IMG/VR virus record: IMGVR_UViG_3300023181_000026
Coordinates: 1 to 64,000 of that record
Length of the DNA: 64,000 nt
Source: a virus
Strand: one strand, 5' to 3'
Below the pieces are notes generated by a model. That model did no database searches and was not told the DNA's origin. It saw only the letters and a list, made by a program, of their open reading frames with translations. This document shows, piece by piece, positions 26,157-47,289 of the stretch (positions are counted from its first letter, which is position 1; the number at the start of each line of letters is the position of its first letter). The translations under genes were made by a program, and so were the position numbers.

Positions 26157-26245
26157 AGGCAAACTAAGAGAGGTAGAGTAGAAGTGTCTTACAATCTAAT
26201 CCTGCTTCAGGATTTTGGGTTAATGAAAATGAGTTAGAATAAAGA

Positions 26246-26283: not shown

Positions 26284-26361
26284 TAATTTCTAAACTCTGT
26301 TGCAGTTCTAAATAGGCTCTTTTATAAGATTGTGCTTCTTTTGTATATCGCTTGCCGTCAT

Positions 26362-26556: not shown

Positions 26557-26576
26557 ATACTCTAGTTATCTTGCTG

Positions 26577-27669: not shown

Positions 27670-27672
27670 ATT

Positions 27673-28393: not shown

Positions 28394-28590
28394 ACTAATT
28401 TATTCTCTCTTAAAAATTTATAATGATTTATAGCTATAATAAGTTCTTTCTCACATACTATAACCCCATCTGTTCCTTTTATATTTTCTGTAATTATCAG
28501 TTGTTTTATCCACTGTTGTAATTCTTCTATTGTTACTCCTTCATTTAGATATTCAAGACAGAGTTTTATTATTTGTTTGCGGCTTTTCAT
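28390..28590 (-). CDS. hypothetical phage protein (66 aa)
   Basis: ORF track; ATGA overlap. Confidence 0.6.
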   Translation of the reverse strand: MKSRKQIIKLCLEYLNEGVTIEELQQWIKQLIITENIKGTDGVIVCEKELIIAINHYKFLRENKLV

Positions 28591-28895
28591 AACAGCCCTT
28601 TCTTAAACTCAAATTCTAAAATCTGCATGAATCTGTAATGATCTCTAAACTCATACACAGCGTCATTAATCTCTTTTCTGCAAGCATCGTATTTTAATAG
28701 CTCTTCTATGCTAAAGCTGGGGGCTTTCTCTTTTAAATTATCTTTGAAATATTTATAACGGTTAATAAAAGAATTATAGTCTCTGCCATCATTACCTATG
28801 TCATAATAATTAACTTCTCCATTTTTAGTTTCTATATCTAGTAGATCCTCTATAGAACTGCACTGACTTAGTATGTTGTTTCCTATTTTATTCAT
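28587..28895 (-). CDS. hypothetical phage protein (102 aa)
   Basis: ORF track; array. Confidence 0.65.
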   Translation of the reverse strand: MNKIGNNILSQCSSIEDLLDIETKNGEVNYYDIGNDGRDYNSFINRYKYFKDNLKEKAPSFSIEELLKYDACRKEINDAVYEFRDHYRFMQILEFEFKKGLL

Positions 28896-29127
28896 AAGTA
28901 TTACCTCCTGTTTTAATTAATAATCCATCTCTTTGCGCCATATTACAAATAAGTTTTCCGAATTTAGAAGTTGGAGTAACCTTTGCTTCATCATCTACAT
29001 ATAATCCCATAGCCGAGAAAAAAAGAATGTACAGAATACAAAAGCTCTTCTTCGGTCATGTGCTGTATATCTATAAACCTTTTAACTCCTCTTAGTATAA
29101 GTGCTAATATGATTACTAAAGTGATTT

Positions 29128-29352
29128 CTACCATAATTTAAAAATTTTACGAAATATAAATATTCCTAATAAAAAGAAAATTATTGCTGATAACATCACA
29201 ATCAGAACTACTTCCATAGTATGCTTCATGATATCTTTCTTATACAAATATTCTGAAATCCACTCGCAAAATATCGCCGATAAAACAATTCCCCATGAAA
29301 TGTATAATCCTAATAAGGAAATAACCATTGAAGTTTTTAGATTTAATTCCAT
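29128..29352 (-). CDS. two-TM membrane protein (74 aa)
   Basis: two hydrophobic segments. Confidence 0.65.
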   Translation of the reverse strand: MELNLKTSMVISLLGLYISWGIVLSAIFCEWISEYLYKKDIMKHTMEVVLIVMLSAIIFFLLGIFIFRKIFKLW

Positions 29353-29353
29353 T

Positions 29354-29662
29354 TTATAGTTTGTTTATAATTTTAATCCCGTCTAAATTTTTTATATATT
29401 TTACAGGGCTTGCTTTAAATAAATAAGTTAAAAATTTTAAAGCAGATGTAAATAATATATTATATCCTAACTCTTTTGACAGATAGAGTATTACATTTTC
29501 TGGTTTAGAGTAATTGTAAACTTTTATATTTTTTATGTGAGTATTATTTCCCGCAAATTCGGCGAAAGTGTCTACTGTTGAGTCTACAAAAAATAAAATA
29601 CCTTTACCATCTATGTATAAAGTACCATCTTCCTCTTTTTTAATAAAAATTTGTTTATTCAT
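29354..29662 (-). CDS. hypothetical phage protein (102 aa)
   Basis: ORF track; array. Confidence 0.65.
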   Translation of the reverse strand: MNKQIFIKKEEDGTLYIDGKGILFFVDSTVDTFAEFAGNNTHIKNIKVYNYSKPENVILYLSKELGYNILFTSALKFLTYLFKASPVKYIKNLDGIKIINKL

Positions 29663-29917
29663 TTACTGTTTTTGTTTTAATATTTCTGTTAAGGCATTTA
29701 ATTCGGCGATTTCGTAAGACAGGTATTTAGTAGATTCGTCCTTTTGTGTAGGTTTCCAAACTACTCCTTCCTTTGAAGTTACATAAACTCTATACCATTT
29801 TAATTCTTTTTCATAAACAGGAAATATGCATATGTGTAAATCATGTTTATCTCTATAATATTTTACCAAGTTTTCTTTCTTTGGCGGAAATAGTCTATTT
29901 TTTATATATTCTAGCAT
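29663..29917 (-). CDS. hypothetical phage protein (84 aa)
   Basis: ORF track; array. Confidence 0.65.
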   Translation of the reverse strand: MLEYIKNRLFPPKKENLVKYYRDKHDLHICIFPVYEKELKWYRVYVTSKEGVVWKPTQKDESTKYLSYEIAELNALTEILKQKQ

Positions 29918-30204
29918 GCCTTCTCTATTAAATATCCTGTTAATACTTTTTCTGGTTGTGTGAAATGGCTTATAGATATATCATTTCCATCTTCATAATA
30001 AACTGCTTCTAAATTAGGTGTTCTGTATTTTGGTTCTATAGATACTTTAATTCCTAAGCTAAGTAGAGTATTAGTATATCTTTTATAATCTATTTCTGCG
30101 CCGACATTAGAAGAACATCCTGCGACAAGAAAAACAGATTTTCCTAATTCCAAAGTAAGCTTTATAGCTTTACATTGTTCTAATGTTTTATTTAGTTGCC
30201 TCAT
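29911..30204 (-). CDS. hypothetical phage protein (97 aa)
   Basis: ORF track; array. Confidence 0.65.
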   Translation of the reverse strand: MRQLNKTLEQCKAIKLTLELGKSVFLVAGCSSNVGAEIDYKRYTNTLLSLGIKVSIEPKYRTPNLEAVYYEDGNDISISHFTQPEKVLTGYLIEKAC

Positions 30205-31230: not shown

Positions 31231-34200
31231 CTAATTTTCTGGTTCAAAATATTCAAGAAATTCGTTAGTATTTTTTTCACTAGATAAATAATAAAGAGAC
31301 TCTGCATTAAATCCCCTATATGTATCTCTTGTTCCTCTTATATCCTGCATATTATAAATTTGCTTTAGTACAGTATTTTTCATCACTAATGAAGTCAATT
31401 TATTCGTCCCTTCGTATTTACCAGATTGAACTTCTTCAAAGAATCCCCCTTTATATAACTCTTTAAGCATCCCTATAGCAATTACAGGCTTATCAATCAC
31501 ATCCATAACTTGCCCTACAACTCCTGTGGCTGTTGATGCCTTAGTTTCAGAGGTTGTCCTCAATAATATGTAAGAAGCTAACGTATATAAATATGCGTCA
31601 TCCTCATCATCCCCCGCTAGTGTTAATGTAGTCACGGCTAACAGTGCAAGAAATAATCCAAACTCTGCCATAACTCTCTTCATATTTGTCTTACCCACAT
31701 CATCTAAAGATCCCCATTCAGTTTTTACTGCTGATATGAGGTTTGTAACTCCTCTATCATCAATCATTTTCTTAATTATATTATTTAGATATCTGAATCC
31801 CGTAATATAAGACCCCTCTACGTTTTCATTGCTTTGTAGGAGATTTTTTTTGCCTTGAAGTCTAGAATTTACTGCTAAAAATAAAAATGAACGCATTCCA
31901 GTTACGAACCTTAAAAGATAATCTCTACTTGCTAAAGACTTCTCTTCTGTCGTAGTTTGCCCATCTATAATAGCAGATGTTTGAGCTGCCTTTTGTAAAG
32001 TGTTTTGATATATTCTGTCTAGTTCTTCTTGTCCGTATTGGTCTACGATTGATCGTCTAAATTTTATAGGCTCTGTCCCTTCATTCTCTAAGATATTCCA
32101 AAGAGAATTATCTCTAAATTCATTCCACTTATTTTTTATTTCAGTTTTTGTAAGCCCTGAGTTCTCTGGTCTTAGTTTATATTGATTATAAGTCATAAAC
32201 CCTACACCCTCAACTGCTCTGATATCATCAAAAGTAGCTATGAATACTTTAGATTTAATAATCTGATCCGTAATTAAAAATCCCTCATAACCTAAATTGT
32301 TAAAAGCAACTGCAACCCTGCCTAGTCCTGAGTTTTGAAGTCTATTCCTGAAATCTATTACTCCTCCCGCTTCCAAAACTTTATATATTTTAGAGCTCCT
32401 GTTTATTTTTCCCGTTTCTTTTAGTAGGTTAGGTGCTTCTTTAAGGTCAAATTCCTTCTCAGCATATAAGTTAGAATCTGCCTGAATGAACTGTCCTAAT
32501 CGCGCCTCAATAAAGTTTCTATTTACTGAACCTGTTAAAAAGTTGGTTAGAGTTACAGGAACTGAGAATGCTAAGCTTGAATATTGTACAAAACGGTGAA
32601 TTACTAAGGCAAGCCTACTTACGTCAACTTTATATCTATTTAACAGGTTTATTTCTAATTTCTTAGATTGAGTTTTTCCATAGATATTAAAGTCTATAAA
32701 AGAATCTGCCATTTGTAAAGCATTTGAAGCATCTCCTGTTTTACCATTAGTGAATTTTTGTTCTTCTACCTGTTGTCTTAAAGCCATCACAGAGGCTAAA
32801 CTATTCTTTTTTTCTCTGTAAAGATTTGATTCATAGAGAAGTTCGGCGAAAGTCATTCCTAAACTTAAACTTACATCTCCTCTTTCTTCAAGGTCATAAA
32901 TATATTTCATTGGAATTATATTCTGAGAATCATTTTCATCTCTAACCCCATAATCTAAATCATCTACCCTGTTTAAAAATGTATCCTTATAGCTTCTTTT
33001 TATTGTTTCACCGATTCCAACTCTATAAGCATCTGATAACTTTTCAACTTTAGATTTAGATAATTGCGGTAATTTGTTTATATCTGTAATTATTCCGTAG
33101 TTAGCTGATACTTTCCTATTTGCTTCATGCATTAAAGTAAGCAACTGAAAATCTTCTAAATTTTGAGTTGGGTTACCTTGACCGTCGAAATTAAATCGGT
33201 TATAATAATTTTCATTTCTGTACTTACTCTGTTTTGGTTGATACTGACCACCTTCCCAATTTGCATCAAAATTTTCATTTCGTTCATTTTCTGTAGTATT
33301 TTCATTCCAAGTATAATTAGGAGTAATTTCTACATACTGAGTTACGGGATATTCTTCCTGTAAAGCTTGTCTATCGTTAACTAATCTACTAGGATTTATA
33401 TCTCCGTTATTCAAAGCTTTTACAAATTCGGAATAACCTTTTGGCGCAAATCTTTTATAATAAGAATACAATTTTGTTCTTCCATAAGCTATTTCAAGTT
33501 TTGCAGTATTTTTAAATTCGGGAGAGTTTAATCTGTCTACTACTTCATCATAAAATTCATCTTCTGAAAGTTCTTCACTTAAACCAAAATAAGATTGAAA
33601 GAATCTTGCATATTTAGGCTCTATATTATCTGTAGTGCCACTTTGTAAGTCTTCTATCTTGCGAATAAATTTAGTTACATTTACTTGGTCGTCAGAAGAT
33701 ATATTCTTATAAAGAAAGTCGGCTTCTTTTATAGTACCTATCTCAGACTGTTTAATACCTGAATCTAATAAATCATCAAAATAAGATTGATTAACTGTAT
33801 TCTCAGTCTCTACTTGTGCTTCCTGTACTTCTTCAACTCCGTTACGCCTTAATATCTGATTGGCTTGTTGAAAACCTTTCTGTATCTCTGTGTCTAATTC
33901 TTGTACTCTTTGTTTTGCGGCAAGGCTCATTACAGGTACATCTGTCTCTGCTGGATTTCCTAATTTCTGATATTTCCTTAAAATGTCTGAACGCTCATTT
34001 AAAGCATTTTCTAACTGAAAAGCTATTTCATCAACTACATACGAATCCTCTTCTGAAACTTCTGCGTCTCTTAACCTTCTTATAATTTTAGGCTCTTTTT
34101 TAGCGTCTGTATCTTCCGACTTATTACCTAAAGCGTCATAAAACTCCTTAGAAAACCTTATTCCACCATTAGTCTGAACCCATTTTAAAGCCTCCTTATT

Positions 34201-37014
34201 TCCACTGGCTTGTTCTATAGCTTGTAAAGTCTGAGTAAACTCCTCTCTCAGCTTAAATATCTTATCTTTATTTCTTTCTGCAAAGTTAGCATCTGCCTGA
34301 ATTAAATCCTGAGCAATCTGCCATGCTATAGTACCGTCTTCTTTTGGATTACCATTCTCATCAGTTAAAGCTTTTGCAAATTTTCTTTCTCTTGCTAGAG
34401 CTTCCAGTTCTATACGATCCGCATCTGACATTATGTCTTGCGGGCTGTATTTCTTAGTTATTCTATATCTTTGAGAAGATAGATTTCTTAGAAAGTTTTT
34501 TGTTTCTGTATTCATCCAAGCAGTATCACTTTCTCTCTGTTCATAGTAAGCTTCTGTAAAAGGTCTTTCTATATTTTCATTTTTCCATGCATTTACTTCT
34601 TGCTCATACTGTTGCCTTTGAGCTTCTGTTAATGTTGGAATTCTTTTTAATAATTCTTTTCCGCCCTCTACATTTAGGATAGATTTTAAAATATTTATCT
34701 GAGTATTTTGCAAATCTTGGAGAAATTGCCCCATATTGATTCCAGAAATAAGGCTACCTGTATGATTTCCATCACTATCAGTTTCTACTATATTTCTAAA
34801 CTTTCCTATATTATATCCATTATCTTCTATAAAATTTAATAAGCCTGTTACATCTGTTTGAGTTTCAATATTGGCTTTCGTTCTATTATCGGAGAATATC
34901 TTACCTAAAAGGTTTAAAAATATATTATTTGAAAGTCTTAATTGACCAAAAGTTCTTCCAAACCACGTTATATCTTTTGTTTCCTGAGTAATTTTTGTTC
35001 TTACTATGTCAGCATCGGCTTGGGACAATCCAGTTTTTGCAATTACAGCTTCTACTACACTATTAGCCCCTTCAGAATTAAGAAGTCTTTCATTTCCTTC
35101 TAATCTGTTTATATCTTCTATCTTCTGCCTTAAATCGGAAAGTATATCTTGTCTGTTAATCCCTTCAGAGTCTTTAATTACATTATTTTCTATAATAGAA
35201 ATCATATCCTGAATTGACGATTTCACGTCTGAAAAACTTGCTATAGCCGTAATAGTCTCTGCATTCAAGTATAATTTATTCTGATTAGGGTCTCCCTCCT
35301 GAAATCTTTTTAGAGCAGCTTCTACCTTTCTTACAGTTGTGTTTAAAGGCTCTCTTAATCCTGCGTTTAATTGCTGAATAGCTATCCAAGCTTCTGCATT
35401 ATTAAGCTGCTGAGTATTTTCTAGAAGTCCTTTAACACTTGATAAAGGTGCATCAATATTTGTACTTCTTTGCTTTTTTAAATTCGTATTAATCTTCTGT
35501 AAACTATTATAATAAGATTGGAGACGACTTGAAACTTTTTTATCAGCTAAAGAGTAAAATAAAAACTCACTTTTATCTAAAGTGCTTTCACTAAATACAT
35601 CATCAAAATTATTATTTAATACATTATTTGCTACAGCATCTGTAAATGCATCAAGTTCTTGTCGAATAGAGGGTGTAATAAGGGCTCTGAAACGAGAAAT
35701 TAAGTTATTCCATAGTTCTTGTAATAGATTTGTAAATCCTGCTTCTACGGGCGTATTTTGAGTTTCTACAAAATTCTCCTGAAACTTACGACCCAATATC
35801 TTTCCTAATATCTCTTTTCTTACAATTTCATCTAATTGTGCCCCTGAATAATTTTTAGAATAGATTTCTGTGTATCTTTGAGCGTCTTGTCTCCATTCAT
35901 TAGTTAAATGGACATTTGTTAGCATTCTATTCAAAGTTTCTACATCCTGAAAAGCTTCAATAGCAAAATGCGCCACCTCTTCTGATAGATTTTCTACTGT
36001 ATATTGACCATCTGCAAAAGCTACTACTCTATTTGATATGTCGGCTAAAGCTTCTGCTGTTGGCTCTACTCCGTTCTTTTCTGAATATCTTAGAATATAG
36101 TCATCTATAGAAGTTACATTTACTCCTATTTTACTTAGAAAAGATTTTAAACTATTCTTAAGTTGTTCTTCGGTTAAAGTCTGGATAGGTTCTGTAGTTA
36201 CTTTACCATCTCTAAATAAGCTGTTCTTCTCTCTGTAAATATTATAAGCTGATTCCACTACAGCGACTTTACCCATTCGAGATTCAAGGGTTGGCTGTTT
36301 GCCTGATTTTAAATCTTTTATGAATTGTTCCTTGTTTATAGTTCCGCCATCAAACTCTATAGTATTCAGATTGTTAGGATTTATTTTGATTGCACTATTC
36401 GCATATCTCAAAACATTATCGTTTCCAAATTGCTTTATAGCATCCTGATAAACTGCTTCTGAATTAAGTCTCACCAAACCTTCGGAATGACCTGCTCCTT
36501 GTAGTTGATATTGCCCGTCTAATAAAACTTTGCTTTCGTTTAGATTTCCAAGTCTTATTTGTTTATTTATAAACCCTTCAACAGTATCTGGATTGCTATT
36601 TGAGTTTATAGAAAATAAAGTCTGAAAAGCTTCTTCATTATTAAGATTTATAGTATTCTCTACTATAACTAAATCTGATTTAGAGTCTGGATTATATGAT
36701 ACTTCATTTGAAGTAAATACACCTGCTTGTATATCTCCTGTTTGTGTTGCATCTAGTGCTTCTTTATAGGATTGAAATAAATTCGCTGCGGGTGTTTTAT
36801 AGTATAGTGTGGGCTCTGCATTTTCATCTAATAAAGCAGGATGATTACTAAAAGTAAAATTAGGAGTAAAAATATTTTTATAAGAATCTAACGCTTGCTC
36901 TGTATTGATTAAAGCATTAGAAGCAATTGAATTAAATAATATAGAAGGTTGCCCATTTTCTGCCAGAACAGTTTCTATTTGATTTTGTGAATTTCTTACT
37001 ATTGAACAAGCCAT
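31231..37014 (-). CDS. giant virion cargo/ejection protein (1927 aa) with MAC N-terminal domain, degenerate zincin-like motif and C-terminal TM helix
   Basis: size and position after tail genes as in crAss-like phages; LSEEVAHF...VRKEILGK; FGLFLALLAVTTLTLAG. Confidence 0.75.
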   Translation of the reverse strand: MACSIVRNSQNQIETVLAENGQPSILFNSIASNALINTEQALDSYKNIFTPNFTFSNHPALLDENAEPTLYYKTPAANLFQSYKEALDATQTGDIQAGVFTSNEVSYNPDSKSDLVIVENTINLNNEEAFQTLFSINSNSNPDTVEGFINKQIRLGNLNESKVLLDGQYQLQGAGHSEGLVRLNSEAVYQDAIKQFGNDNVLRYANSAIKINPNNLNTIEFDGGTINKEQFIKDLKSGKQPTLESRMGKVAVVESAYNIYREKNSLFRDGKVTTEPIQTLTEEQLKNSLKSFLSKIGVNVTSIDDYILRYSEKNGVEPTAEALADISNRVVAFADGQYTVENLSEEVAHFAIEAFQDVETLNRMLTNVHLTNEWRQDAQRYTEIYSKNYSGAQLDEIVRKEILGKILGRKFQENFVETQNTPVEAGFTNLLQELWNNLISRFRALITPSIRQELDAFTDAVANNVLNNNFDDVFSESTLDKSEFLFYSLADKKVSSRLQSYYNSLQKINTNLKKQRSTNIDAPLSSVKGLLENTQQLNNAEAWIAIQQLNAGLREPLNTTVRKVEAALKRFQEGDPNQNKLYLNAETITAIASFSDVKSSIQDMISIIENNVIKDSEGINRQDILSDLRQKIEDINRLEGNERLLNSEGANSVVEAVIAKTGLSQADADIVRTKITQETKDITWFGRTFGQLRLSNNIFLNLLGKIFSDNRTKANIETQTDVTGLLNFIEDNGYNIGKFRNIVETDSDGNHTGSLISGINMGQFLQDLQNTQINILKSILNVEGGKELLKRIPTLTEAQRQQYEQEVNAWKNENIERPFTEAYYEQRESDTAWMNTETKNFLRNLSSQRYRITKKYSPQDIMSDADRIELEALARERKFAKALTDENGNPKEDGTIAWQIAQDLIQADANFAERNKDKIFKLREEFTQTLQAIEQASGNKEALKWVQTNGGIRFSKEFYDALGNKSEDTDAKKEPKIIRRLRDAEVSEEDSYVVDEIAFQLENALNERSDILRKYQKLGNPAETDVPVMSLAAKQRVQELDTEIQKGFQQANQILRRNGVEEVQEAQVETENTVNQSYFDDLLDSGIKQSEIGTIKEADFLYKNISSDDQVNVTKFIRKIEDLQSGTTDNIEPKYARFFQSYFGLSEELSEDEFYDEVVDRLNSPEFKNTAKLEIAYGRTKLYSYYKRFAPKGYSEFVKALNNGDINPSRLVNDRQALQEEYPVTQYVEITPNYTWNENTTENERNENFDANWEGGQYQPKQSKYRNENYYNRFNFDGQGNPTQNLEDFQLLTLMHEANRKVSANYGIITDINKLPQLSKSKVEKLSDAYRVGIGETIKRSYKDTFLNRVDDLDYGVRDENDSQNIIPMKYIYDLEERGDVSLSLGMTFAELLYESNLYREKKNSLASVMALRQQVEEQKFTNGKTGDASNALQMADSFIDFNIYGKTQSKKLEINLLNRYKVDVSRLALVIHRFVQYSSLAFSVPVTLTNFLTGSVNRNFIEARLGQFIQADSNLYAEKEFDLKEAPNLLKETGKINRSSKIYKVLEAGGVIDFRNRLQNSGLGRVAVAFNNLGYEGFLITDQIIKSKVFIATFDDIRAVEGVGFMTYNQYKLRPENSGLTKTEIKNKWNEFRDNSLWNILENEGTEPIKFRRSIVDQYGQEELDRIYQNTLQKAAQTSAIIDGQTTTEEKSLASRDYLLRFVTGMRSFLFLAVNSRLQGKKNLLQSNENVEGSYITGFRYLNNIIKKMIDDRGVTNLISAVKTEWGSLDDVGKTNMKRVMAEFGLFLALLAVTTLTLAGDDEDDAYLYTLASYILLRTTSETKASTATGVVGQVMDVIDKPVIAIGMLKELYKGGFFEEVQSGKYEGTNKLTSLVMKNTVLKQIYNMQDIRGTRDTYRGFNAESLYYLSSEKNTNEFLEYFEPEN

Positions 37015-37015
37015 A

Positions 37016-37306
37016 TTACTTTGTATATCCTACATCTTGTATACCTGTAGGTCGGGTTAGTATTTTTATTTTGGTTTTCTCTTTTAAAATCTCTTTGTCT
37101 ATTTCTGACAAATCTAGATCGCATCTTTTGATTTTTATTTCATAGGTGGCGTATCCTGTAGTTTTTATTTGTTGCACTACCTTATAAGCAGATCCTGTTT
37201 TTGAAGTGTAGAATATCGTCCCCTCAGAAAAGGCATTACTTATGGTTAAATATCCATACATTGCCTTTATTTCTAAGCCCTTAATAATCTTAGCTTGTAC
37301 TAACAT
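37016..37306 (-). CDS. small hypothetical protein (96 aa) at cargo-gene junction
   Basis: ORF track; overlaps end of 747-aa gene, ends 1 nt before next ATG. Confidence 0.6.
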   Translation of the reverse strand: MLVQAKIIKGLEIKAMYGYLTISNAFSEGTIFYTSKTGSAYKVVQQIKTTGYATYEIKIKRCDLDLSEIDKEILKEKTKIKILTRPTGIQDVGYTK

Positions 37307-39543
37307 TCTTTCTCCGAATTTATTTGTTCCAATTGTTTTTGAGTGTAAAGTCTTTCTATAGAAGATATATTTTCTAAAGTTTGAACTAATCCTTCAAATT
37401 GTTGAGGATTTACTGAAGTATTTATATTAACTTCTATATTATATTGACTAAACAAAGGATTATATATTTGAGGTAGCTTTTGATATATCGTTAAATTTTT
37501 ATAATTTCTTGCCTTTTCCCATACTTCTCCGTTTACATTAATATAATTATCTTCAAGATTCTGGGTTGCTAGATATTCTCCATCTTCTGAAAGTTCTATT
37601 TGTACAGTTTTTTGTGAGAGCTGTTCTGGGTTATTTAAATAGAATTCTCTAACTAATTTTTCTTCTATAGGTTGTTCTTGGGTTTCTGCCGTAGTAAATA
37701 AAGTGTTTAGTTCAAAATCTTTGCTTATAATTGCATAATCTCTCAACGGGTGACTTTCAGGTGTAAAAAGATTAATTTCCTGTTTCGAATAAGGGTCAGA
37801 GTCTTTTAAAACTATACCTCTCTCATTAAACTTAAAATGATTATAAACCTTACTGAAAAGTTCACTATCTTCTATTTTCTGTTGTAAATATTCTCTGGAA
37901 AAGTCTGAAATAAAATCCCCTGTTAAATACTCATAACTTCTATTTACAGAATTGATTTTATTAAGCTCAACTTGTAAATCCTTTTGAACTGTGGAGAAAT
38001 TTATAGCATGTCCAAAAGCTATTTTATATAAGGTTAAGTCTTCACTATATCCTTGTTGTTGGACATATCTTACAATATCTTCTCTTATAGATTCTCTATT
38101 ATTTATATCTACTGCCTTTCTAAATAAAAATTTATTATTAGAATAAGCTGAAGGAAAAAGAGCTTGTTTATCTATTATATTAGGATTAAACTGTACCAAA
38201 TCTGTTACATAATCATATAGCCCTTCCAAATCTTCTTGCCTATTCACTCTCTGATAGACTCCTTCATTATTTACTTTAACTAAAGAATTTTCATCGAATA
38301 ATTGCTGCTCTGATTTTATAGAATCAACTAAAACTAGACTTTTACCTCTATTCGAAGGATTCATTTTTATAGCAGTGTATTCGGGCTGTAAGTTTTGGTT
38401 GAATATAAGATTGTAATTATTAGAAAAATCTTCTATCATAGCTTGTTCTACAGTGCCGTATTGAGCATTATAAGCTAAATTAGCAACTGAGTTAAGATAA
38501 TTTTGAATATCTTCAAAAGAATAGCTTTGATTTGTTATTCCTACAGTATCTATGCCTAATTCAGATGATAAATCCTCTATTCTAAGTAATAAGTCTTCTA
38601 TCTCCACTCCATTATCTTCCCAGACTGTTCTTGGAGTACTTTGTAATAAGTCTATGGCGTTAAGTAAGTCTGTTGCACTTTCTCCTATTATTAAAGACTG
38701 TTCTGTAAATTTTCTTATATTATTTGGGTAACTATACTCAAGACCTCCAAATCCACTGTCTTCTAGAATTTGCATTCTTTCCATAGAAGAGTAAGTTTCA
38801 AATATTTTATTTGCAAACTCATCATTAGTGAAGTACTGATCTACTATAGCTTCATTGGCTCCATCTAATAGGTTTTCAAATTGTTCTCTATTTTTAATAC
38901 CACCAACTCTTTGCCTTAAATCTTTATCTATTAAAAAAGGATTAATTTGAGTAAATTTTCCTAGTCCTATGATGTTAGTAGTATCTTGTACGGAGAGTAA
39001 ATCAGGAGTCTCATATGTTGCCATATTTTGATTAATCTGTCTTAAATCGATTTCATTTAAAGATACTTCGGCAATTATTTTATCTGCTGTTTCTTTTATA
39101 TTTCTATGTAGTGAGCTATCTGCTAATAAAGCTTCTATTTCTGTTTCTGTGTATAATTCACTTTTTGTCAGTGTTGCCCTATTCACAGTAAATATACCTT
39201 GTGGGTATAAAGATGTGACTTTAGTGTACATCTCTTCTATTGAATTAAAAGGTATAGATAAAGTGTTATTTCTTAAATTATCAATGTCCTGTTTAGTTAA
39301 AGATTTATTCTGATTATTATTTCTTGATATAAAAGTCATCACTTCACTAAGAGTAGGATCTGTTGCTGTCACCCCATTAATATCTTGATACTGTTGAGTG
39401 TAGGGTACATAAGCTATTTCTAAAGCTTGTTGTTCATTGCCCACTACTTGTAAAGCTTGACTGTACAACTGTGATATTTCTCCTTGTGGATTCTCAACTC
39501 TCTCAATATTACCTTCACTATCTCTAATTATTCTACAAGCCAT
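37300..39543 (-). CDS. virion cargo protein (747 aa) with MAC N-terminal domain and C-terminal Cys
   Basis: N-terminus paralogous to 1927-aa protein; ends KEC. Confidence 0.75.
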   Translation of the reverse strand: MACRIIRDSEGNIERVENPQGEISQLYSQALQVVGNEQQALEIAYVPYTQQYQDINGVTATDPTLSEVMTFISRNNNQNKSLTKQDIDNLRNNTLSIPFNSIEEMYTKVTSLYPQGIFTVNRATLTKSELYTETEIEALLADSSLHRNIKETADKIIAEVSLNEIDLRQINQNMATYETPDLLSVQDTTNIIGLGKFTQINPFLIDKDLRQRVGGIKNREQFENLLDGANEAIVDQYFTNDEFANKIFETYSSMERMQILEDSGFGGLEYSYPNNIRKFTEQSLIIGESATDLLNAIDLLQSTPRTVWEDNGVEIEDLLLRIEDLSSELGIDTVGITNQSYSFEDIQNYLNSVANLAYNAQYGTVEQAMIEDFSNNYNLIFNQNLQPEYTAIKMNPSNRGKSLVLVDSIKSEQQLFDENSLVKVNNEGVYQRVNRQEDLEGLYDYVTDLVQFNPNIIDKQALFPSAYSNNKFLFRKAVDINNRESIREDIVRYVQQQGYSEDLTLYKIAFGHAINFSTVQKDLQVELNKINSVNRSYEYLTGDFISDFSREYLQQKIEDSELFSKVYNHFKFNERGIVLKDSDPYSKQEINLFTPESHPLRDYAIISKDFELNTLFTTAETQEQPIEEKLVREFYLNNPEQLSQKTVQIELSEDGEYLATQNLEDNYINVNGEVWEKARNYKNLTIYQKLPQIYNPLFSQYNIEVNINTSVNPQQFEGLVQTLENISSIERLYTQKQLEQINSEKEC

Positions 39544-39761
39544 TAATTGGGATTTTTTACTATATTATATAAAGTCTCTCTAAAGAAATCTTTCTCTCTT
39601 CTGAATTTTTCTTGTAATAATTCTTGATGCCTGTCCATTAGTTCACGAACCAGCAAAGTATAAGGTTTAGAAATATCCAACCCCCACATATCCATTATAG
39701 CCATTTGTCGATTTATTTCTTCCATACTCTGCAAAGTTAATAAAATTATTTTTATGCGCAA
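39543..39761 (-). CDS. small hypothetical protein (up to 72 aa) at cargo-gene junction
   Basis: ORF track (TTG start; MEEINRQ alternative); TAATG coupling to 747-aa gene. Confidence 0.55.
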   Translation of the reverse strand: MRIKIILLTLQSMEEINRQMAIMDMWGLDISKPYTLLVRELMDRHQELLQEKFRREKDFFRETLYNIVKNPN

Positions 39762-42700
39762 GTATTATCTTGAATTTCTTTTTGAGCCATGTTTGTAGTC
39801 TCTTCCACTATCGTATTAGTTGGATTAGCTGTCTGTCCTATTATAACTCTCTCTTTTAATTTTAAAGCAAGTTTTGGACTATGAAAAGGCTTATCAGTGA
39901 TGTCAATATTTATTGATGCTTGCTGTTGTAATAATTGTTTTGCGGTTTCTATTGTGGACTCATTCACCCAATCTTCAAAATTATTATAAGAGCTTTGGGA
40001 TGATAGTTGATCTCTTATAGAGTCTAAATGGTCAGGGTCATTAAGATTAGTCTGCCCTGAAATATAATAAAATCCATTTTCCAGATTATTACTGTCTATA
40101 TTATTTTCAGAAAGGTATTGATTAAGTCCTTTTACTTTTTCATTTATAGGCAGGTCAGCATTTAATAAATTATCAAATTCTCCAACTTTATCTATTTCAA
40201 TCTCATTCATTGAAACTGGATAGGCTACTTTACTTCCATTATAATTAAAGACTACTATAGGAAATTTTCTACCTCTTGACATTCTCTTGACAAATGTAGT
40301 GTTTACCCCTTTTTCATTGACTTTTAGAGTTAACTTTTCATTTGATATATAACCTACATCAACTATCTTTTCTAAAGCTTTATTCGATATTGGTAGTAAT
40401 TCAGTTGCTAATATCCCTGTTGATTTATCTAAGATAAGATTGAAATTAGGTTTTCCAAAATAAGAACTATTCCTGTCTATTGGGACAGATATTTGAACAT
40501 CTATTAAATCATTCTCTAAATTTGATTCCAAAGCTCTTTGGGTAGCAATCTTTCTTATTTGTGACAACTCTAAATAATTCCCATCTTCAAATATTTCTCT
40601 AGGTACAGATTTTAAAACTCCTCCTACTTCTCCTTCCTCAGACATTACATAAATGGAAATATTATTTTGCAGCTCTTGCATTGAAATAGCTCCTGCTCGG
40701 AACTTCTGAATTAAATCTTTATTAAATTCATTTCTGTTAGAAACAAACAGAGAAGTTTCTGTGTCATCAGGTTTATTGGTAAAATCAGTGAATGTGAGTC
40801 CTGGCTCTAGTTCAAAATTAGAATTATTAATTTCCAAAGGAGTTACAGTAGCATTTCTGTTAAGCTCTATTAAAAGTGGTTGATAGTTAGTGCCTAAGTT
40901 TGTCGAAGGAATAGCTTTAAACCTTGTACTTTCATTTAGTATACTTATTCCCGCCGCATTTATTTCTAAACCTTTTGTTTGCCCAATTGTAACATTAATT
41001 TCTGTACCATCTTCAAACTGAATTATAAATCTGTCTCCAACATTATAATTTTCTCCTGTTAGTAATCCTGAAACTTGTTTTCTATTATTCCTCTTATTAG
41101 GTTTGTTGTTTAAAATGCCTACTAAATTATCTTTAGCTACAATATCAACTAGTCCTTGAAGATTAATACCTGTTATACTGTAAGTACCGTTCTCCAATAC
41201 TCTAAATTCGGATTTTTCCCAATATTGCGTTTTATTGGCAGTATCTCTTCTGCCGCCTGCCAGAGTAAGGGAAGCTTGTATTTCCTCAGTATTAGTGTTA
41301 TTTACAGGTAAAGACTCTGTTTGATTGTTGTTAACCTCGTCTAAGGTGGCAATTTGTTCTAAAATATCTGCCAAAACAACTCCGCCTTCAACTGTACCTA
41401 CCGCTCTGCCATAAGTATTAAGTCTATCTTTTAACTGGTTAAATCTTTGACTATCTTTTTCTCTCAGTCCATTAACACTTCTACGGTTTCTGTCATAAAG
41501 CTTTTTATACTCATCCATCTCCTGCTGAGACGGTCTTTTAAGTGGAGTTGATAGTTCCTCTACGTCCCTTCTGTTTTGTAATATATCATCTACTATAGAC
41601 TGAAGTCTTTCTCTTAAAGTTTGAGGAGTGTTTAAAGTTATGCCGCTATTTTGAAACAATTCTTCATCTCTTTGTTGTTCTAAAGCATTTAATTGCTGTA
41701 TATGCCTTTCTTGAATTTGTGCATATTCTTCAGAATTTTCTAAAAGTCCTTCTGTCTGAGTTAGTTCTATTTGTTGCTGAGATAGTAATTCTTCTCTTCT
41801 TGTGTTATAAGTTTCTTCTATTTCCGCTGTTAATTCTGTAGGAACTTGTTGTTCTATAGGTGGTAAACTGTCCCCCTCTTCAGCTAAGTTTATTTTGGCT
41901 TGTGGAGACTGAATCTCAGTGTTTGCATTATCAACGATAACTTTGAATTCATTATATTGATTTCTTAATTGTTGATAAATTTCTTGTTCCGCTTTTTGAT
42001 AGTCCGAAATATCCGCGCCTTTCTTTTTAAATTTATTAAGAATAGGTGAAAATATAGTTTTTATCTCGGCTTTTCTTAAAGCTGGATTTGATAATTTATT
42101 AAATGTTTCATTAGCGTTGACAAAAGCTTTTTGAGCTTTATCATATTGATCTATCATATAACCAACACCCTCGGCAGACGACTCTTGTCCATTTCTGCGC
42201 CACGCATCTAAAGTCTCAGACAAACTTCTAAGATTATTTGTAGCCTCTACTAATTTTTCAGCATTTACAGATTCGTCATCAAATATATTGGCAAACTCTT
42301 GATTTGCTATCCTTTTTGCCTTCCTTACTTGATTTATATCTTGAGCTATAGCCTCTAGCTCTGAGTTTATTTCATTTCTTCTTTTACTGTCTCTTTCTTC
42401 TGCTAAAAGTAATTCCTGCCTTCTATTTTCAAACGCTTGTAGTCTTGCATCACCTTGTTCTGTTCTCGGTCTGGAAGCTATTCTTATTAGTTCTTCATTT
42501 CGGCTATTTAAATCTCTATCAAGTATTTCTAATTGCCTAGTTAAGCTCTTAACTTCTTTGCTTTTATTAACTTCTTTTGCTTGTAAACTGTTTTCTAAAG
42601 AAAGTGCTGAGGCTGCTCCTTCATTACCTATTATGTCTGAAATACCTTTAGCGTAAGATCTTGCAAGTCTATCTGAATTTCTACCCATGTAAATATTTAA

Positions 42701-44653
42701 AGCTAAGACAGATTGAGCGTCTACATTAGGAATTATAGCTGTTGCTCCGTCAATATTTAGGGTTTGATTTTCAGGCATTAAGGCTTCTGCATACCTTTGA
42801 GCTTCTTTATAGTCTTTCAAAGCTGACGTATGAGCATCTAAAGCTTCCTGTTTTATTTGAGTAGCCTCTTCTACACTTACATTTAACTGTTCCGATAATT
42901 CATTAATATCTAATTCATTTATAGATGATATAAAGTTTTCAGATGAGTTATCTAAAAGCCCCATTTTATCATCTAATTGTAATTTAGAGAATACAGCTAG
43001 ATTCAATTCCTGATTTGCTATTACCCCATCTTGTATACTATTAGCTATTTTTCCTCTAGCTGCTTTTTGTACATTTGCAGTTTTAAACTTTTCTAGTAAG
43101 TTATAATTTGAGTTTGTAGTTTGCCAAGTGGCTATGTCGGACTGAGCATCTACAGCTTTTTGATAATCTCTTATTCCAAAACCGCTTTTAACATTCGATA
43201 GTCCTCCTATAAGTGAGCCAATAAGAACTTCTTCTAGTCCTTCTTTAGTTCCATAAGTTTGTGCTAAAGATTTTTGTAAAGCGTCCATAGTAGAAAAACT
43301 ATCCTGCACAGCATTTGCATCATACTTTGATTCTAAATACCTTTGTCCAAAATTACCTAAAACAGATTGTCCTCCCTCTTCTATTACACCTTCTCTAATT
43401 GGAGATTTTAAGACATTTAAACTTGTTCCTAGTATTCTCTGCACTCTTGTAGGATTTATTGCTCTATAAGTATCTACAACACCCTCTAAAACCCTTTCTG
43501 TACCTATGCCCAAAGTTCTATTAAACCCTCTTTGTAATCCTCTGGTAGACAAAAATGACCCTACTCCAAAGAGATTTCCAAACTGAGCAATATTTGATCC
43601 TCCCACTAAAGCTACATTCGCAGCAAATAAAGTATTTGAACTTACTGTTGCTTCATCTCTGAATCTTGCCATTTCTTCTCCTGAAGGTGTCCCTCCAAAA
43701 GTATTTGAATAATAATCTAAATAATTTTTTTCAGCTTCTTTAAGAAAATGTCTTGCTTCTACTCCTGCTTCATAACCTGCTGAAGTATATAAGAACCTTG
43801 CGTTGTTAAACGCTTTAAGAGCTCTACTTGTAGGAACAGTTCTTTGGTAGGCATTCATCATCGAAGTTATAGAATGAAGAACTTTATTTTCATTTCTTAT
43901 GGCCGAAGCCCCTCCTCTCAAAAGTGCTCTTGATCCTGCTGTAGCTAAAGATGTACCTCCTGTAGCTGCTGCCCATATTCCTTCTGAGATTAAAGTACCT
44001 GTTACAAAAGACATACCCCCTAAGACTTTATCAGCCCAAAAGTTAGTTGTAGCTAAATTTGAAATTAAAGAGTTATTTTTTTCTTGTTCTGAATAGTAGT
44101 TAGGTAAATCTATGTCTAACTTAGTATTTACGTCATCTATCCATTTAGCAAAATCATTATTGTATATTGCATTGAACGTTCCTGTACTTATCCCCTCTAA
44201 TAGTCCGTTAACTGTACCTACAGTAGCATCTAATACATTAACTCCTGTTTTGGTTACAAATTTACCTACGCCGTTCAAAAGTTTCTCTCCTGCTCCTTGT
44301 TGTAATGCTAATCTATTTTCATTATTAACTCCTGACATATAATTCTCAAATCGGGCTTTATAAGTACCGTCATTAAGCTGTACATAGGCTTGGTCAATAT
44401 TTCTATCCCAAACTTCTAAAGCTGGTTTTTTAGTTGTGGTTGTATCCCACATACTTCCAGAGTCTGTAGAGAGAAGAGATTTTGATAAATCAATCTTATT
44501 TGGATTATACTTTCTTTGAATATCTTGCGCCACTCTTAAAGACCCATCGCCTAAAGGTGAGGCAATAGTGGCAGGTTCCACAGGATTTGTATTGAACTGA
44601 GTAGGAAAGTCGAAAGCAGGTATTCCTGCATTTAAGTTTTGGATTTCGTCCAT
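39752..44653 (-). CDS. giant virion cargo/ejection protein (1633 aa) with Gly/Ala-rich membrane-spanning region and coiled coils
   Basis: GMSFVTGTLISEGIWAAATGGTSLATAG, LIGSLIGGL; long heptad stretches; ends TCA. Confidence 0.75.
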   Translation of the reverse strand: MDEIQNLNAGIPAFDFPTQFNTNPVEPATIASPLGDGSLRVAQDIQRKYNPNKIDLSKSLLSTDSGSMWDTTTTKKPALEVWDRNIDQAYVQLNDGTYKARFENYMSGVNNENRLALQQGAGEKLLNGVGKFVTKTGVNVLDATVGTVNGLLEGISTGTFNAIYNNDFAKWIDDVNTKLDIDLPNYYSEQEKNNSLISNLATTNFWADKVLGGMSFVTGTLISEGIWAAATGGTSLATAGSRALLRGGASAIRNENKVLHSITSMMNAYQRTVPTSRALKAFNNARFLYTSAGYEAGVEARHFLKEAEKNYLDYYSNTFGGTPSGEEMARFRDEATVSSNTLFAANVALVGGSNIAQFGNLFGVGSFLSTRGLQRGFNRTLGIGTERVLEGVVDTYRAINPTRVQRILGTSLNVLKSPIREGVIEEGGQSVLGNFGQRYLESKYDANAVQDSFSTMDALQKSLAQTYGTKEGLEEVLIGSLIGGLSNVKSGFGIRDYQKAVDAQSDIATWQTTNSNYNLLEKFKTANVQKAARGKIANSIQDGVIANQELNLAVFSKLQLDDKMGLLDNSSENFISSINELDINELSEQLNVSVEEATQIKQEALDAHTSALKDYKEAQRYAEALMPENQTLNIDGATAIIPNVDAQSVLALNIYMGRNSDRLARSYAKGISDIIGNEGAASALSLENSLQAKEVNKSKEVKSLTRQLEILDRDLNSRNEELIRIASRPRTEQGDARLQAFENRRQELLLAEERDSKRRNEINSELEAIAQDINQVRKAKRIANQEFANIFDDESVNAEKLVEATNNLRSLSETLDAWRRNGQESSAEGVGYMIDQYDKAQKAFVNANETFNKLSNPALRKAEIKTIFSPILNKFKKKGADISDYQKAEQEIYQQLRNQYNEFKVIVDNANTEIQSPQAKINLAEEGDSLPPIEQQVPTELTAEIEETYNTRREELLSQQQIELTQTEGLLENSEEYAQIQERHIQQLNALEQQRDEELFQNSGITLNTPQTLRERLQSIVDDILQNRRDVEELSTPLKRPSQQEMDEYKKLYDRNRRSVNGLREKDSQRFNQLKDRLNTYGRAVGTVEGGVVLADILEQIATLDEVNNNQTESLPVNNTNTEEIQASLTLAGGRRDTANKTQYWEKSEFRVLENGTYSITGINLQGLVDIVAKDNLVGILNNKPNKRNNRKQVSGLLTGENYNVGDRFIIQFEDGTEINVTIGQTKGLEINAAGISILNESTRFKAIPSTNLGTNYQPLLIELNRNATVTPLEINNSNFELEPGLTFTDFTNKPDDTETSLFVSNRNEFNKDLIQKFRAGAISMQELQNNISIYVMSEEGEVGGVLKSVPREIFEDGNYLELSQIRKIATQRALESNLENDLIDVQISVPIDRNSSYFGKPNFNLILDKSTGILATELLPISNKALEKIVDVGYISNEKLTLKVNEKGVNTTFVKRMSRGRKFPIVVFNYNGSKVAYPVSMNEIEIDKVGEFDNLLNADLPINEKVKGLNQYLSENNIDSNNLENGFYYISGQTNLNDPDHLDSIRDQLSSQSSYNNFEDWVNESTIETAKQLLQQQASINIDITDKPFHSPKLALKLKERVIIGQTANPTNTIVEETTNMAQKEIQDNTCA

Positions 44654-44655: not shown

Positions 44656-47289
44656 TTATTCTTGTAATGTGCTTAAAACATTATCTATTTGGTTTGGATT
44701 CTGTGACAAATACCTTAACATAGCATCGCTGGCAGTAATCTGAGGGAATTGTTTAACATATAAATTGACTTGTTCGTTGTTTTCTTCTGTTCCCCCATCA
44801 TTTCGGTAAAGTTGTGTTTTACCTACCCCATTAAGATTTACAGCTACTTTCCATCTTCCTTTTTCTACATCTGCTCTCACTTCAATCTTATCTCCATTGG
44901 CTTCCATAAGATCAACTAATTGATTTATCTTTTGCGGAGCCACTCTTCCCTGTAATGCTGTATTGAAAATTTGTTTTGTAGTGGAGGTATTCAAATAATT
45001 AACTGGGTTAACTCCTGAGGTTAGAGGTGTTCCTCCTGTTCTTTGTTGTATATATTGAGCAGAATTTGTTAATATATCTGAGGAAGTTTCATCTATATAC
45101 TCTATACCATTACTCTTAATAGTAGGTGTATCTGCGCTTAATGGACTTCTCCTTGCTGCCGCTAAATCTAATTTTCCTGCTATGTATCTATAAGCGTCTG
45201 AATCTGTTGAGATATCCACATATCTAGGAGCCCCTGCAAATATACCGCCTTCTTTTCTCCCCTCTGTTGCTTGAGTAACTCTTAGGCTTCCATCACTATT
45301 CTTATTAATAGTTATTGGATTTTTAGGGGTAAACACAAAACCTCCTGTATCTTGTGGTATCATACTCACAAAAGCTTCTCTTTCTTTTTCATTAGTTAGA
45401 TTAGCTGAGTATGTTCTATTAAATCCTGCATACCCCCTATTCTTAAGATTTTGTTGTATAGTTGCCTGAGTATCTTCATACGGACTTCTTACAGTAGTTA
45501 TTCCATTTCTGAAATCGAAATTTCTTCTTCTTCCTGTATTTATGTCAAAATTAATTAACCCTCTCTCTTCTTCTGATTCTCCTGCGAAATTAAATAGGTC
45601 GATATTTCTTGTTACAGTTGAATACTTTTGAAGTAAATCTGCGGCTCTTCTTTTAATTGCTATACTTGTGCCTGGACTTGCAAGGCTTTCAGGAGATATT
45701 TTATTGTTAGTAAGGAAAGTTCTAACATCTGGTTCATTTCTTAAAGAGTCTAATCCTCTATAATATTGGGATGCATTAGAGGCGAACGCTCCTGTTATTG
45801 CTTCATCTTTTGATTTCTGAATGTTGACAGCTATATTATCTTTTTCAGTTCTTAGGTTTTCTATTGTTCCTGCCTCTTGTGGGTTAGACTGTTTAAATAT
45901 TTTATTGAATGCGAGATAATTTGCATTGGATTCCGTTTGACCTTGTTGTTTGTATTTAGCTTTTTCTGCATCAAATAATTGTCTTTGATCATCATTAGCT
46001 TGTCTATAAACTGCCGTTACAGTTTGATTAAGTCCTTGGGCTAAAGTATTGTACTCATTTGTTGCATCTGCTACAGGGTCTATTTCCTGAGCTATTGCCC
46101 CTACTGCTGGATTAACTGCTATTCCTAAAGTGGGGTCTGGATTAAGTTCAGATTGCATTTTAGCAATTTCAAGTTGTGTCTTAACCATTCCTAATTCGGA
46201 CTCTCTTTGCTGTCTTGCTTCTCTACTATAGTCTAGCTCTAGATTTTTTTGCGCATAGAAGGCTGTATCTGTTTCATATTCTACACTCTCTCTCGCACCC
46301 GCTATCTGAGAGAAATTATTCATCCATCTATTGGTTTCTATAAATCCTCCTAAAGAAGCAGTATCATTAACATTTATTTGAGTTATCTCCGAATTGAAAG
46401 ATTCTTTTTGATTCAATAAAGCTTGTTTTTGTCTGGAATACATTGCTCTTTGTTTTTTAGAAAGACCCGAAGTGCCTTCTCCTATAGTTGCTGTTTGTAT
46501 TCCTCTGTCTAAGGCATTATTCCTATCTGTAACATAGGTGTCAAATACTGTTTGAGCTGTGGTTAATCCACCTTGTCCTTGATATTGCCCCCACCCATCT
46601 ATTTGAAGTTGTTGTTTTACTTCTGTAGGTACTAAATTAGGTAAATAAGCTTGTATTTCTTCTGAAGTAAGTCCTTTTATACTTCTACGTTGTATTCTTC
46701 TGTTTCCTTGTGCGTCTGTTACAGGCACTTCTATTACTTGGTCTCCTTTAGTTTCCTTAAGATCTTTTACAATAGCTAACATAGCTTTGTTTTTATCAAC
46801 ATATGGTGTGTAAACTCCTCCTTGATATCCAACACCTGCATTTGGATTTGAAAGCCATTGTTGAGCTCCTCTTAAAGCAAATGCCTCATTTAAAGGATTA
46901 TACTTATCAATCTCTTTTGTTCTGAAGTAGTCTATATTTGATTGCAGCTTTCTGAAGTTTTGGGTTGATGCTGCTGCTGTAATAACTTTATCGTCTATAG
47001 CTCTTTTGATATTACCCTGAATAAGCCCTGTAATATTTTGAGAAGAGTAGTCGGCACCTTCTAAAGAATTTATTTGATTAACCATATTAGTTAGATTATT
47101 AGCTAAATGTTCTTTATCAACATCTTTAGCCAAGTCTATCTGTGCGTACTGGTCTATTTGATTTTGTAATTTCTCTACGTTTTGATTTATTGCTCCTTGT
47201 TTAAATTCTAAAGCCTTAGAGACTAACTCAAAATTATAAGTCGGTAAGGGGTTTTGGTAGGTTAATGGAGTACTCAGATAATTTGCCAT
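44656..47289 (-). CDS. virion cargo protein (about 877 aa; start reassigned to MANYLST)
   Basis: track start 47322 lies inside a promoter; ATG at 47289 preferred. Confidence 0.75.
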   Translation of the reverse strand: MANYLSTPLTYQNPLPTYNFELVSKALEFKQGAINQNVEKLQNQIDQYAQIDLAKDVDKEHLANNLTNMVNQINSLEGADYSSQNITGLIQGNIKRAIDDKVITAAASTQNFRKLQSNIDYFRTKEIDKYNPLNEAFALRGAQQWLSNPNAGVGYQGGVYTPYVDKNKAMLAIVKDLKETKGDQVIEVPVTDAQGNRRIQRRSIKGLTSEEIQAYLPNLVPTEVKQQLQIDGWGQYQGQGGLTTAQTVFDTYVTDRNNALDRGIQTATIGEGTSGLSKKQRAMYSRQKQALLNQKESFNSEITQINVNDTASLGGFIETNRWMNNFSQIAGARESVEYETDTAFYAQKNLELDYSREARQQRESELGMVKTQLEIAKMQSELNPDPTLGIAVNPAVGAIAQEIDPVADATNEYNTLAQGLNQTVTAVYRQANDDQRQLFDAEKAKYKQQGQTESNANYLAFNKIFKQSNPQEAGTIENLRTEKDNIAVNIQKSKDEAITGAFASNASQYYRGLDSLRNEPDVRTFLTNNKISPESLASPGTSIAIKRRAADLLQKYSTVTRNIDLFNFAGESEEERGLINFDINTGRRRNFDFRNGITTVRSPYEDTQATIQQNLKNRGYAGFNRTYSANLTNEKEREAFVSMIPQDTGGFVFTPKNPITINKNSDGSLRVTQATEGRKEGGIFAGAPRYVDISTDSDAYRYIAGKLDLAAARRSPLSADTPTIKSNGIEYIDETSSDILTNSAQYIQQRTGGTPLTSGVNPVNYLNTSTTKQIFNTALQGRVAPQKINQLVDLMEANGDKIEVRADVEKGRWKVAVNLNGVGKTQLYRNDGGTEENNEQVNLYVKQFPQITASDAMLRYLSQNPNQIDNVLSTLQE

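Follow-up and report, generated by a model that had tools for sequence, protein, structure and literature searches.

A late gene block with four terminal cysteines

The window analysed here, a stretch of 64,000 nucleotides, comprises positions 1-64,000 of a 131.6-kb phage genome with ~30% G+C (IMG/VR virus record IMGVR_UViG_3300023181_000026). A late gene module on its minus strand runs from a gene for a 2444-amino acid (aa) virion protein through a 250-aa open reading frame (ORF) to five large ORFs; the genes for terminase, a GroEL-like protein, portal and major capsid protein belong to the same module and lie past the window's end. The order along the minus strand is terminase, GroEL-like, portal and capsid, then further on the 2444-aa muzzle-like protein, the 250-aa ORF, proteins of 1038 and 877 aa and finally three proteins of 1633, 747 and 1927 aa, subsequently named starter, middle and terminator protein (Table 1). 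Judging from their homologues, these three are probably internal virion (cargo or ejection) proteins. The placement of the three genes after head, tail and muzzle genes and cysteine-free cargo genes is that of a Crassvirales-type cargo block. The lengths given for the five large proteins in the initial annotation hold for four of them; the gene listed there with 888 aa most likely starts at the ATG at position 47289, because its homologues begin MANY..., and would then encode 877 aa.

We translated the five large minus-strand ORFs and checked each cysteine (Cys) codon individually. The 1038- and 888-aa products contain no Cys at all, the starter and terminator proteins contain one each and the middle protein two. 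These four residues are C1632 of the starter, C3 and C747 of the middle protein and C3 of the terminator: the initial annotation had put them forward as the sole Cys of the five proteins, and this proved exact. It had also described the outer ends of the three proteins as free of Cys, which leaves one facing pair per junction, and we find the same arrangement in the window and in every genome checked that has the three-part layout. With the 250-aa ORF included, the Cys-poor block consists of six proteins with 4 Cys in 6,460 residues (0.062%), compared with 1.31% Cys in the 202 other ORFs of the genome; ~85 Cys would be expected in the block at this frequency (Poisson P = 3e-31). Four randomly placed Cys would come to lie within 3 residues of the four facing ends, one at each, with a probability of ~1e-12. 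Histidine is ~4-fold depleted in the cargo block as well (31231-51309, minus strand; 0.39% versus 1.52% in the remainder of the genome), and tryptophan and methionine are ~2-fold lower than elsewhere in the genome.

A near absence of Cys relative to the rest of the proteome marks the ejection proteins of Schitoviridae, such as the N4 virion RNA polymerase gp50 and gp71, gp72 and gp73 of DEV, and the block shares this property; the cited cause of Cys suppression in these proteins is passage through the periplasm (PMC11445570). Cys might likewise have been lost here only because the proteins pass unfolded through an oxidising periplasm, in which case the terminal Cys would be tolerated leftovers or would close the middle protein into a ring. 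That Cys suppression is already known from ejection proteins and that the two upstream cargo proteins are wholly Cys-free fits such an explanation, which we nevertheless regard as very improbable in view of the conservation and fusion data presented below.

Table 1. Features of the cargo block and adjoining genes (window coordinates)
Feature	Position	Strand	Remarks
Terminator protein, 1927 aa	31231-37014	-	C3 codon at 37006-37008
Terminator N-head domain, residues 1-45	36880-37014	-	paralogue of the middle-protein N-head, 42% identity over 43 aa
Small conserved ORF between middle and terminator genes, 96 aa	37016-37306	-	one Cys, C62, in an RCD motif
Middle protein, 747 aa	37300-39543	-	codons C3 at 39535-39537 and C747 (last residue) at 37303-37305
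Middle-protein C-terminal tail, residues 723-747	37303-37377	-	ends ...KEC; low-confidence linker and short helix in the AlphaFold2 (AF2) model
Middle-protein N-head domain, residues 1-56	39376-39543	-	Cys3, beta-hairpin and three helices; from AF2 and hidden Markov model (HMM)
Small conserved ORF between starter and middle genes, ~60 aa from ATG (72 aa from TTG)	39543-39725	-	no Cys
Starter protein, 1633 aa	39752-44653	-	C1632 penultimate, codon TGC at 39758-39760
Starter C-terminal tail, ~30 aa (residues 1604-1633)	39755-39844	-	ends ...NTCA; disordered in AF2 model
Cargo-like protein, 877 aa from ATG (888 aa from TTG)	44656-47289	-	Cys-free
Cargo-like protein, 1038 aa	47438-50554	-	Cys-free
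ORF upstream of the cargo genes, 250 aa	50557-51309	-	Cys-free; HExxH motif
Virion protein, 2444 aa	51363-58697	-	muzzle-like

Conservation of the terminal cysteines

An exhaustive HMMER search with the middle protein yielded 381 relatives. We analysed 157 homologues (149 listed representatives outside the query's own cluster and eight close homologues), which range in length from 175 to 3072 aa, comprise 163,309 residues in total and extend down to ~21% identity. These proteins contain 322 Cys, only 21 of which are internal: a Cys is found within the last four residues in 155 of the 157 homologues and within the first eight residues in 146, and 134 carry exactly two terminal Cys and none elsewhere. 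The 3072-aa homologue, for example, has Cys only at positions 5 and 3070. Thirteen homologues are without one terminal Cys; among them are gene fragments, the two fusions described below, a protein whose N-terminal region has been replaced and three others. Neither of two apparent exceptions contradicts the rule: P0121 is truncated by the end of its contig, and P0010, from a contig of 3 kb, differs in its N-terminal region. Just four columns, C3, S24, L26 and C747, are invariant in a 44-sequence alignment of the middle family that again reaches ~21% identity. The C-terminal Cys is often preceded by an acidic residue (...DEC, ...DNC, ...KEC).

In all ten starter homologues the sole Cys is found at position -1 to -3, the N-terminus being free of Cys, and all 16 terminator homologues have an N-terminal and no C-terminal Cys, two of them with over-long start calls. 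Positional conservation, on which the initial proposal depended, is therefore observed in the middle, starter and terminator families alike, and overall the terminal Cys rule is kept in ~180 distant relatives. Tolerated leftovers of Cys loss would not be invariant at ~21% identity, nor would they be kept in 155 of 157 homologues, which argues against periplasm passage as the only cause.

Structure of the heads and tails

The AF2 model of the middle protein (predicted local distance difference test (pLDDT) 88.8, predicted template modelling score 0.82) places Cys3 at the opening of a hairpin of two strands (residues 4-7 and 13-17), which is followed by three helices (residues 25-56); strands and helices have pLDDT 82-91. 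An HMM of this N-head matches only two ORFs genome-wide, those of the middle and the terminator protein (E = 3e-13 for the latter), and it also matches phi17:2 gp036 and crAss001 gp49 (residues 1-54, E = 2e-6). In relatives that carry large inserts (ART-PolyVal and others), these follow or interrupt the head and leave the Cys hairpin at the very start of the protein. The other ends look different: modelling of the last 420 aa of the starter gave a fold up to about residue 385 and a final 30 residues with pLDDT ~35 and no secondary structure, and in the middle protein residues 723-731 have pLDDT <50 and a helix at 735-744 reaches ~64. According to these models, the C-terminal Cys of starter and middle protein are predicted to sit on flexible tails.

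A conserved, folded head could dock on something besides a tail. The terminal Cys might be unpaired, each acting alone as an attachment to the portal, the inner capsid or the muzzle, as a packaging signal or as a modification site. We consider this explanation unlikely, mainly on the basis of the layouts and fusions described in the following.

Head and tail numbers match in the three-part layouts checked

In every genome checked with a three-part layout the number of Cys-bearing heads equals the number of Cys-bearing tails (Table 2). Junction stop codons vary between genomes, and the rule is kept where the genes lie on opposite strands or 8 kb apart; it is therefore independent of adjacency and nucleotide context, and a nucleotide-level cause such as overlapping starts or stops was ruled out. 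No correlation between the offset of the Cys in a tail and its offset in the next head was visible in the genomes listed.

Table 2. Cysteine layouts in relatives with three chain proteins (L numbers denote loci)
Genome or locus	Starter	Middle	Terminator	Remarks
L003, L004, L005, L007	C-terminal Cys only	Cys at both ends	N-terminal Cys only	50-60% identity
phi17:2	Cys 1957 of 1957	Cys 4 and 516 of 517	Cys 3 of 1914	
phi14:2	g067, C1797 of 1797	g066, C3 and C2179 of 2180	g065, C3 only	
crAss001	gp47, C2339 only	gp50, C5, C1334 and C2404	gp49, C5 only	gp47 on opposite strand
crAssE-Sib	2208 aa	752 aa	frameshift-split, first piece starts MTSTC	terminator 8 kb away
L010	1525 aa	3072 aa	1949 aa	same Cys logic
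L012	partial	2158 aa	1901 aa	same Cys logic

In the window, too, the starter, middle and terminator genes are not directly adjacent, as two small conserved ORFs are interleaved between them. The ~60-aa ORF has homologues of 59-63 aa in L003-L007, among which Cys is not conserved, and C62 of the 96-aa ORF falls into an alignment column without Cys in the homologues of L008, L010 and L011. A role of these small ORFs as Cys partners was ruled out, since their Cys are not conserved in distant loci.

The separation of the chain genes in crAssE-Sib and crAss001 would suit Cys that act independently of each other, as would an extra lone C-terminal Cys without N-terminal partner in CrAssphage LMMB (see below). 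Unpaired Cys do not account, however, for the fact that the starter never carries an N-terminal and the terminator never a C-terminal Cys, nor for the equal numbers of Cys heads and tails in the three-part genomes.

Two of the loci in Table 2 deserve a separate comment. The crAssE-Sib terminator corresponds to two annotated ORFs (L001:24430-25275 and 25175-30097) split by a frameshift, the first of which carries the N-head; the split may reflect an error in the sequence or else a genuine or programmed frameshift. In L012 the three chain genes lie in one frame with TAG codons in between (TCK-TAG-MNC at 1909-1914 and DCQ-TAG-AAT-MSC at 8386-8394), and the other 10 genes of this locus end in TAA. 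From this codon usage, occasional read-through into one polyprotein seems possible in L012.

Natural fusions lack the junction pair

The initial annotation had pointed to relatives with a single fused ORF as informative, and two of them were found among metagenomic relatives: a 2482-aa protein in L008 and a 2173-aa protein in L011 combine starter and middle in one ORF and are without exactly the junction Cys pair. Both fusions contain only one Cys, at the C-terminus, and both are followed by a terminator gene whose product begins MAC or MNC. Residues 1285-1697 of the L008 fusion match the starter and residues 1720-2482 match the middle protein from its residue 12 onwards; at the join ~20 residues are gone from the end of the starter tail and ~11 from the start of the head, both Cys among them. 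In the L011 fusion the middle part starts at residue 205 of the middle protein. The disordered C-terminal segment of the starter is absent or replaced in the natural fusions. Fusions are also seen in cultured phages: FpV4 gp32 (4287 aa) has one Cys, at position 4286, and is followed by a protein beginning MAC..., and in LMMB a 1957-aa protein ending ...SCM is followed by a 4070-aa fusion beginning MSC....

In a tree built on the shared core, the two fusions do not group together: one is joined with a split form (support 0.996) and the second lies in a separate clade of split forms (support 1.0). Because they fall into different supported clades, the L008 and L011 fusions represent two independent contrasts. 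By the topology of this tree the split state looks older in the middle-protein family and the fusions look derived. The idea that the chain rebuilds an ancestral giant protein, part of the initial annotation, is left unsupported in its direction, as fused forms are nested among split forms.

These contrasts bear on both alternatives introduced above. If each terminal Cys acted alone, there would be no reason for a fusion to remove precisely one Cys from a tail and one from a head. If the middle protein were closed into a ring, fusion should leave two stranded, unpaired Cys, whereas the fused forms keep exactly one facing pair; in addition, a ring gives no reason for the single Cys of starter and terminator.

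That the crAss cargo block also exists as fused 'polyprotein' forms has been mentioned before, and proteolytic cleavage was proposed for them (10.1101/2020.03.07.982082). Like these published polyproteins and FpV4 gp32, the L008 and L011 fusions carry the same modules in one frame, here within the present lineage. What the literature on fused forms does not mention is the presence of a Cys pair at each split in split forms and its absence in fused forms.

A proposed chain of cargo proteins tethered by terminal cysteines

Taken together, the asymmetry between starter and terminator, the matched numbers of heads and tails and the paired loss on fusion make a link from C-terminal to N-terminal Cys the simplest account. 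We judge it reasonably likely, somewhat above an even chance, that such tail-to-head tethers, most probably disulfides, connect the three proteins into one thread of ~4,300 aa for ordered passage through the tail. Each protein would contribute a flexible C-terminal tail tipped by one Cys, or an N-head with Cys as residue 2 or 3, or both. Within the particle a bond, most probably a disulfide, would join the tail Cys of one protein and the head Cys of its successor, and the product would be a linear, unbranched thread running from N- to C-terminus (1633-S-S-747-S-S-1927). Topologically this link would be almost the same as the peptide bond of the fused forms. A link between terminal side chains keeps the chain unbranched, which could therefore pass a narrow channel: the thread would travel through the tail channel protein by protein, each pulling the next one in. 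Internal Cys would cause loops, branches and wrong pairings and would have been purged, so the purge would be explained beyond the published periplasm argument for N4-like phages. By analogy with AB toxins, the link might be reopened in the reducing cytoplasm of the host.

We infer disulfide as the most likely chemistry because each partner offers one thiol, His is scarce in the block and virions of crAss001 contain disulfides, namely in the tail hub, in ring proteins and in gp57 (PMC10172136). Alternatively, the pairing may be real and its chemistry different, with a bridging metal ion or a thioether or thioester in place of the disulfide. The comparative evidence for pairing is silent on chemistry, the acidic residue often found in front of the C-terminal Cys could aid metal binding, and a non-redox link would avoid the problem of thiol oxidation in anaerobic hosts. 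Against this, one Cys per partner provides only two thiolate ligands, His is ~4-fold depleted in the block, no conserved second ligand stands beside either Cys and no enzyme for thioether or thioester formation was seen; together with the disulfides documented in crAss001 virions this makes a different chemistry improbable in our view.

Several points weigh against a disulfide-linked chain. The evidence for the terminal Cys link is comparative in nature. Particles are assembled under the reducing conditions of the cytoplasm, and for some relatives the habitat is the anaerobic gut; a search of the genome's small, Cys-poor ORFs for CxxC motifs of thioredoxin, glutaredoxin or DsbA type returned only zinc-ribbon-like pairs. 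Heads and tails look generic and nothing visible enforces the order 1633-747-1927, so that the middle protein could in principle polymerise or be skipped. In the crAss001 study reduced and non-reduced samples were used and no such cross-link was reported, with no statement that one had been looked for (PMC10172136). Finally, there are looser cases: in crAss001 gp50 the C-terminal Cys lies 9 residues before the end and one further Cys is internal, and CrAssphage LMMB (MT006214) has several internal Cys. In LMMB an 861-aa upstream cargo-like protein (L019:1576-4161) additionally carries a lone Cys at position 860 with no obvious N-terminal Cys partner, an unbalanced end for which the simple chain rule has no explanation.

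Whether the arrangement extends to the crAss assemblage as a whole (Crassvirales, epsilon crAss-like phages, Lightbulbvirus and Fipvunavirus) is less certain: that these phages string megadalton cargo head to tail by single terminal disulfides, inject it as one thread and have it cut into working proteins in the reducing host cytoplasm is a proposal to which we would give slightly less than an even chance.

Other ways of joining or using the ends were discarded. A split intein or trans-splicing is ruled out, as Cys located 0-1 residues from the C-terminus and at residue 3 leave no room for intein lobes and no Pfam intein match was obtained. Sortase-type ligation is ruled out by the lack of sortase domains and of a conserved motif ahead of the Cys. 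The middle protein was also rejected as an RNA polymerase: none of the five proteins contains a D[FYLIVM]DxD motif, and a 44-sequence profile of the family matches no sequence in the PDB. Its top Foldseek match, 6vr4, is too weak to count (E = 0.011, TM 0.21; VIA Z 6.3, root-mean-square deviation 12 Å).

Relation to known phages and ejection systems

In blastp searches the starter matched crAss001 gp47 (3e-25) and phi17:2 gp039 (1e-94), and the terminator matched crAss001 gp49 (8e-19 and 1e-7, collinear) and phi17:2 gp036 (3e-108); the 877- and 1038-aa proteins are homologues of phi17:2 gp040 and gp041. Searches with tblastn gave matches to genes annotated as 'putative RNA-polymerase subunit' in many crAss phages. 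PHROGs labels four of the five large proteins 'virion structural protein', and no Pfam domain was found in any of the five. A megablast search of the region against phage records gave no match, and IMG/VR scans with the middle protein and with P0012 found nothing. The phage is related to epsilon crAss-like phages and to the Cellulophaga Lightbulbvirus, and its starter and terminator are orthologues of crAss001 gp47 and gp49. The collinear homologues of all five large proteins in phi17:2 (Lightbulbvirus, with phi4:1) run from gp041 to gp036 and carry the annotation virion structural; crAssE-Sib, an epsilon crAss-like phage (OR575929; PMC11054128), has collinear homologues of four of them. Identity to both phages is only 23-31%, and the middle protein of phi17:2 is shorter (517 aa).

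The closest functional data come from crAss001, whose gp47, gp49 and gp50 were identified as virion cargo by mass spectrometry (PMC10172136), and from phi14:2, whose g065-g067 were detected by tandem mass spectrometry. In both phages the cargo block (gp47/gp50/gp49 and g067/g066/g065) is placed as it is here, behind a muzzle-like protein and Cys-free cargo genes, and shows identical terminal Cys logic (PMC10172136; 10.1101/2020.03.07.982082). The present block differs in that its middle protein is only 747 aa long, has no DxDxD motif and no sequence match to the phi14:2 polymerase, and in the two small conserved ORFs that separate its three genes.

With the ejection proteins of Schitoviridae the block shares giant proteins, ejection via a short tail and the near loss of Cys. 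In the Schitoviridae proteins Cys is essentially absent and a single polypeptide makes up the cargo, whereas the present block distributes its cargo over several genes with one Cys per cut end. As to a relation to N4 gp50, gp51 and gp52, a phmmer search with the starter and the terminator against all PDB sequences, at the single-sequence level, found nothing. Polyvalent proteins, in turn, combine several effector domains per polypeptide (Iyer et al. 2017, PMC5512222), and the window proteins differ from them in having no Pfam domain. Relatives of the middle and terminator proteins in L008, L010 and L011 do carry Kinase-PolyVal, DUF3293, LPD23 and ART-PolyVal inserts; among these insert-bearing chain members internal Cys were gained only in the 3089-aa member of L008, which has four. 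To judge from these insertions, injected effector domains of the polyvalent type appear to use the chain as their scaffold.

Disulfides between packaged or translocated partners have parallels elsewhere. In AB toxins an interchain disulfide holds the translocated partner and is opened in a reducing compartment, and in adenovirus a disulfide joins the protease to the packaged peptide pVIc, whose Cys lies beside its C-terminus. These are analogies from general knowledge: the proteins are unrelated, and neither system forms a head-to-tail chain of several giant proteins.

The claim of the initial annotation that there is no described precedent agrees with the literature searches made here. No terminal Cys tether was found in the literature library searched, and terminal Cys are not described in the publications on crAss001, the phi14:2 polymerase, polyvalent proteins and Schitoviridae ejection proteins, the word 'cysteine' being absent from the first three; wider literature searches likewise found nothing. 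Cys suppression and fused polyprotein forms, by contrast, had already been described.

It is an open question (PMC10172136) how crAss-like phages, the most abundant gut viruses, deliver ~0.5-1 MDa of folded protein by way of a channel that is too narrow for the folded proteins. One Cys per cut end offers a cheap and concrete hypothesis, namely that separate cargo proteins behave as one thread. If true, it would amount to redox-gated protein delivery, not described for any virus, and would explain both the intolerance of internal Cys and the free fusion and splitting of cargo genes in evolution. It can be tested in the cultured phages phi17:2, phi4:1, phi14:2, crAss001 and FpV4, and the terminal Cys provide a simple annotation signature for chain members and their order.

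Neighbouring genes

The 250-aa ORF upstream of the cargo genes contains the sequence HEANH at residues 133-137 and may encode a zincin-like protease; its product shows weak similarity to phi17:2 gp042, annotated as 'tail protein'. The adjoining 2444-aa virion protein has 46 Cys, DUF5122 beta-propeller repeats and a match to the chitin-binding family CBM14, and shows weak similarity to gp44, the muzzle protein of crAss001 (E = 2e-4); its Cys content contrasts sharply with that of the Cys-free block next to it. Between terminase and portal, at 82335-83921 of the genome (L014:335-1921, minus strand), lies the gene for the GroEL-like chaperonin (PHROG 5725, E = 2.5e-117), which might help to fold the giant proteins.

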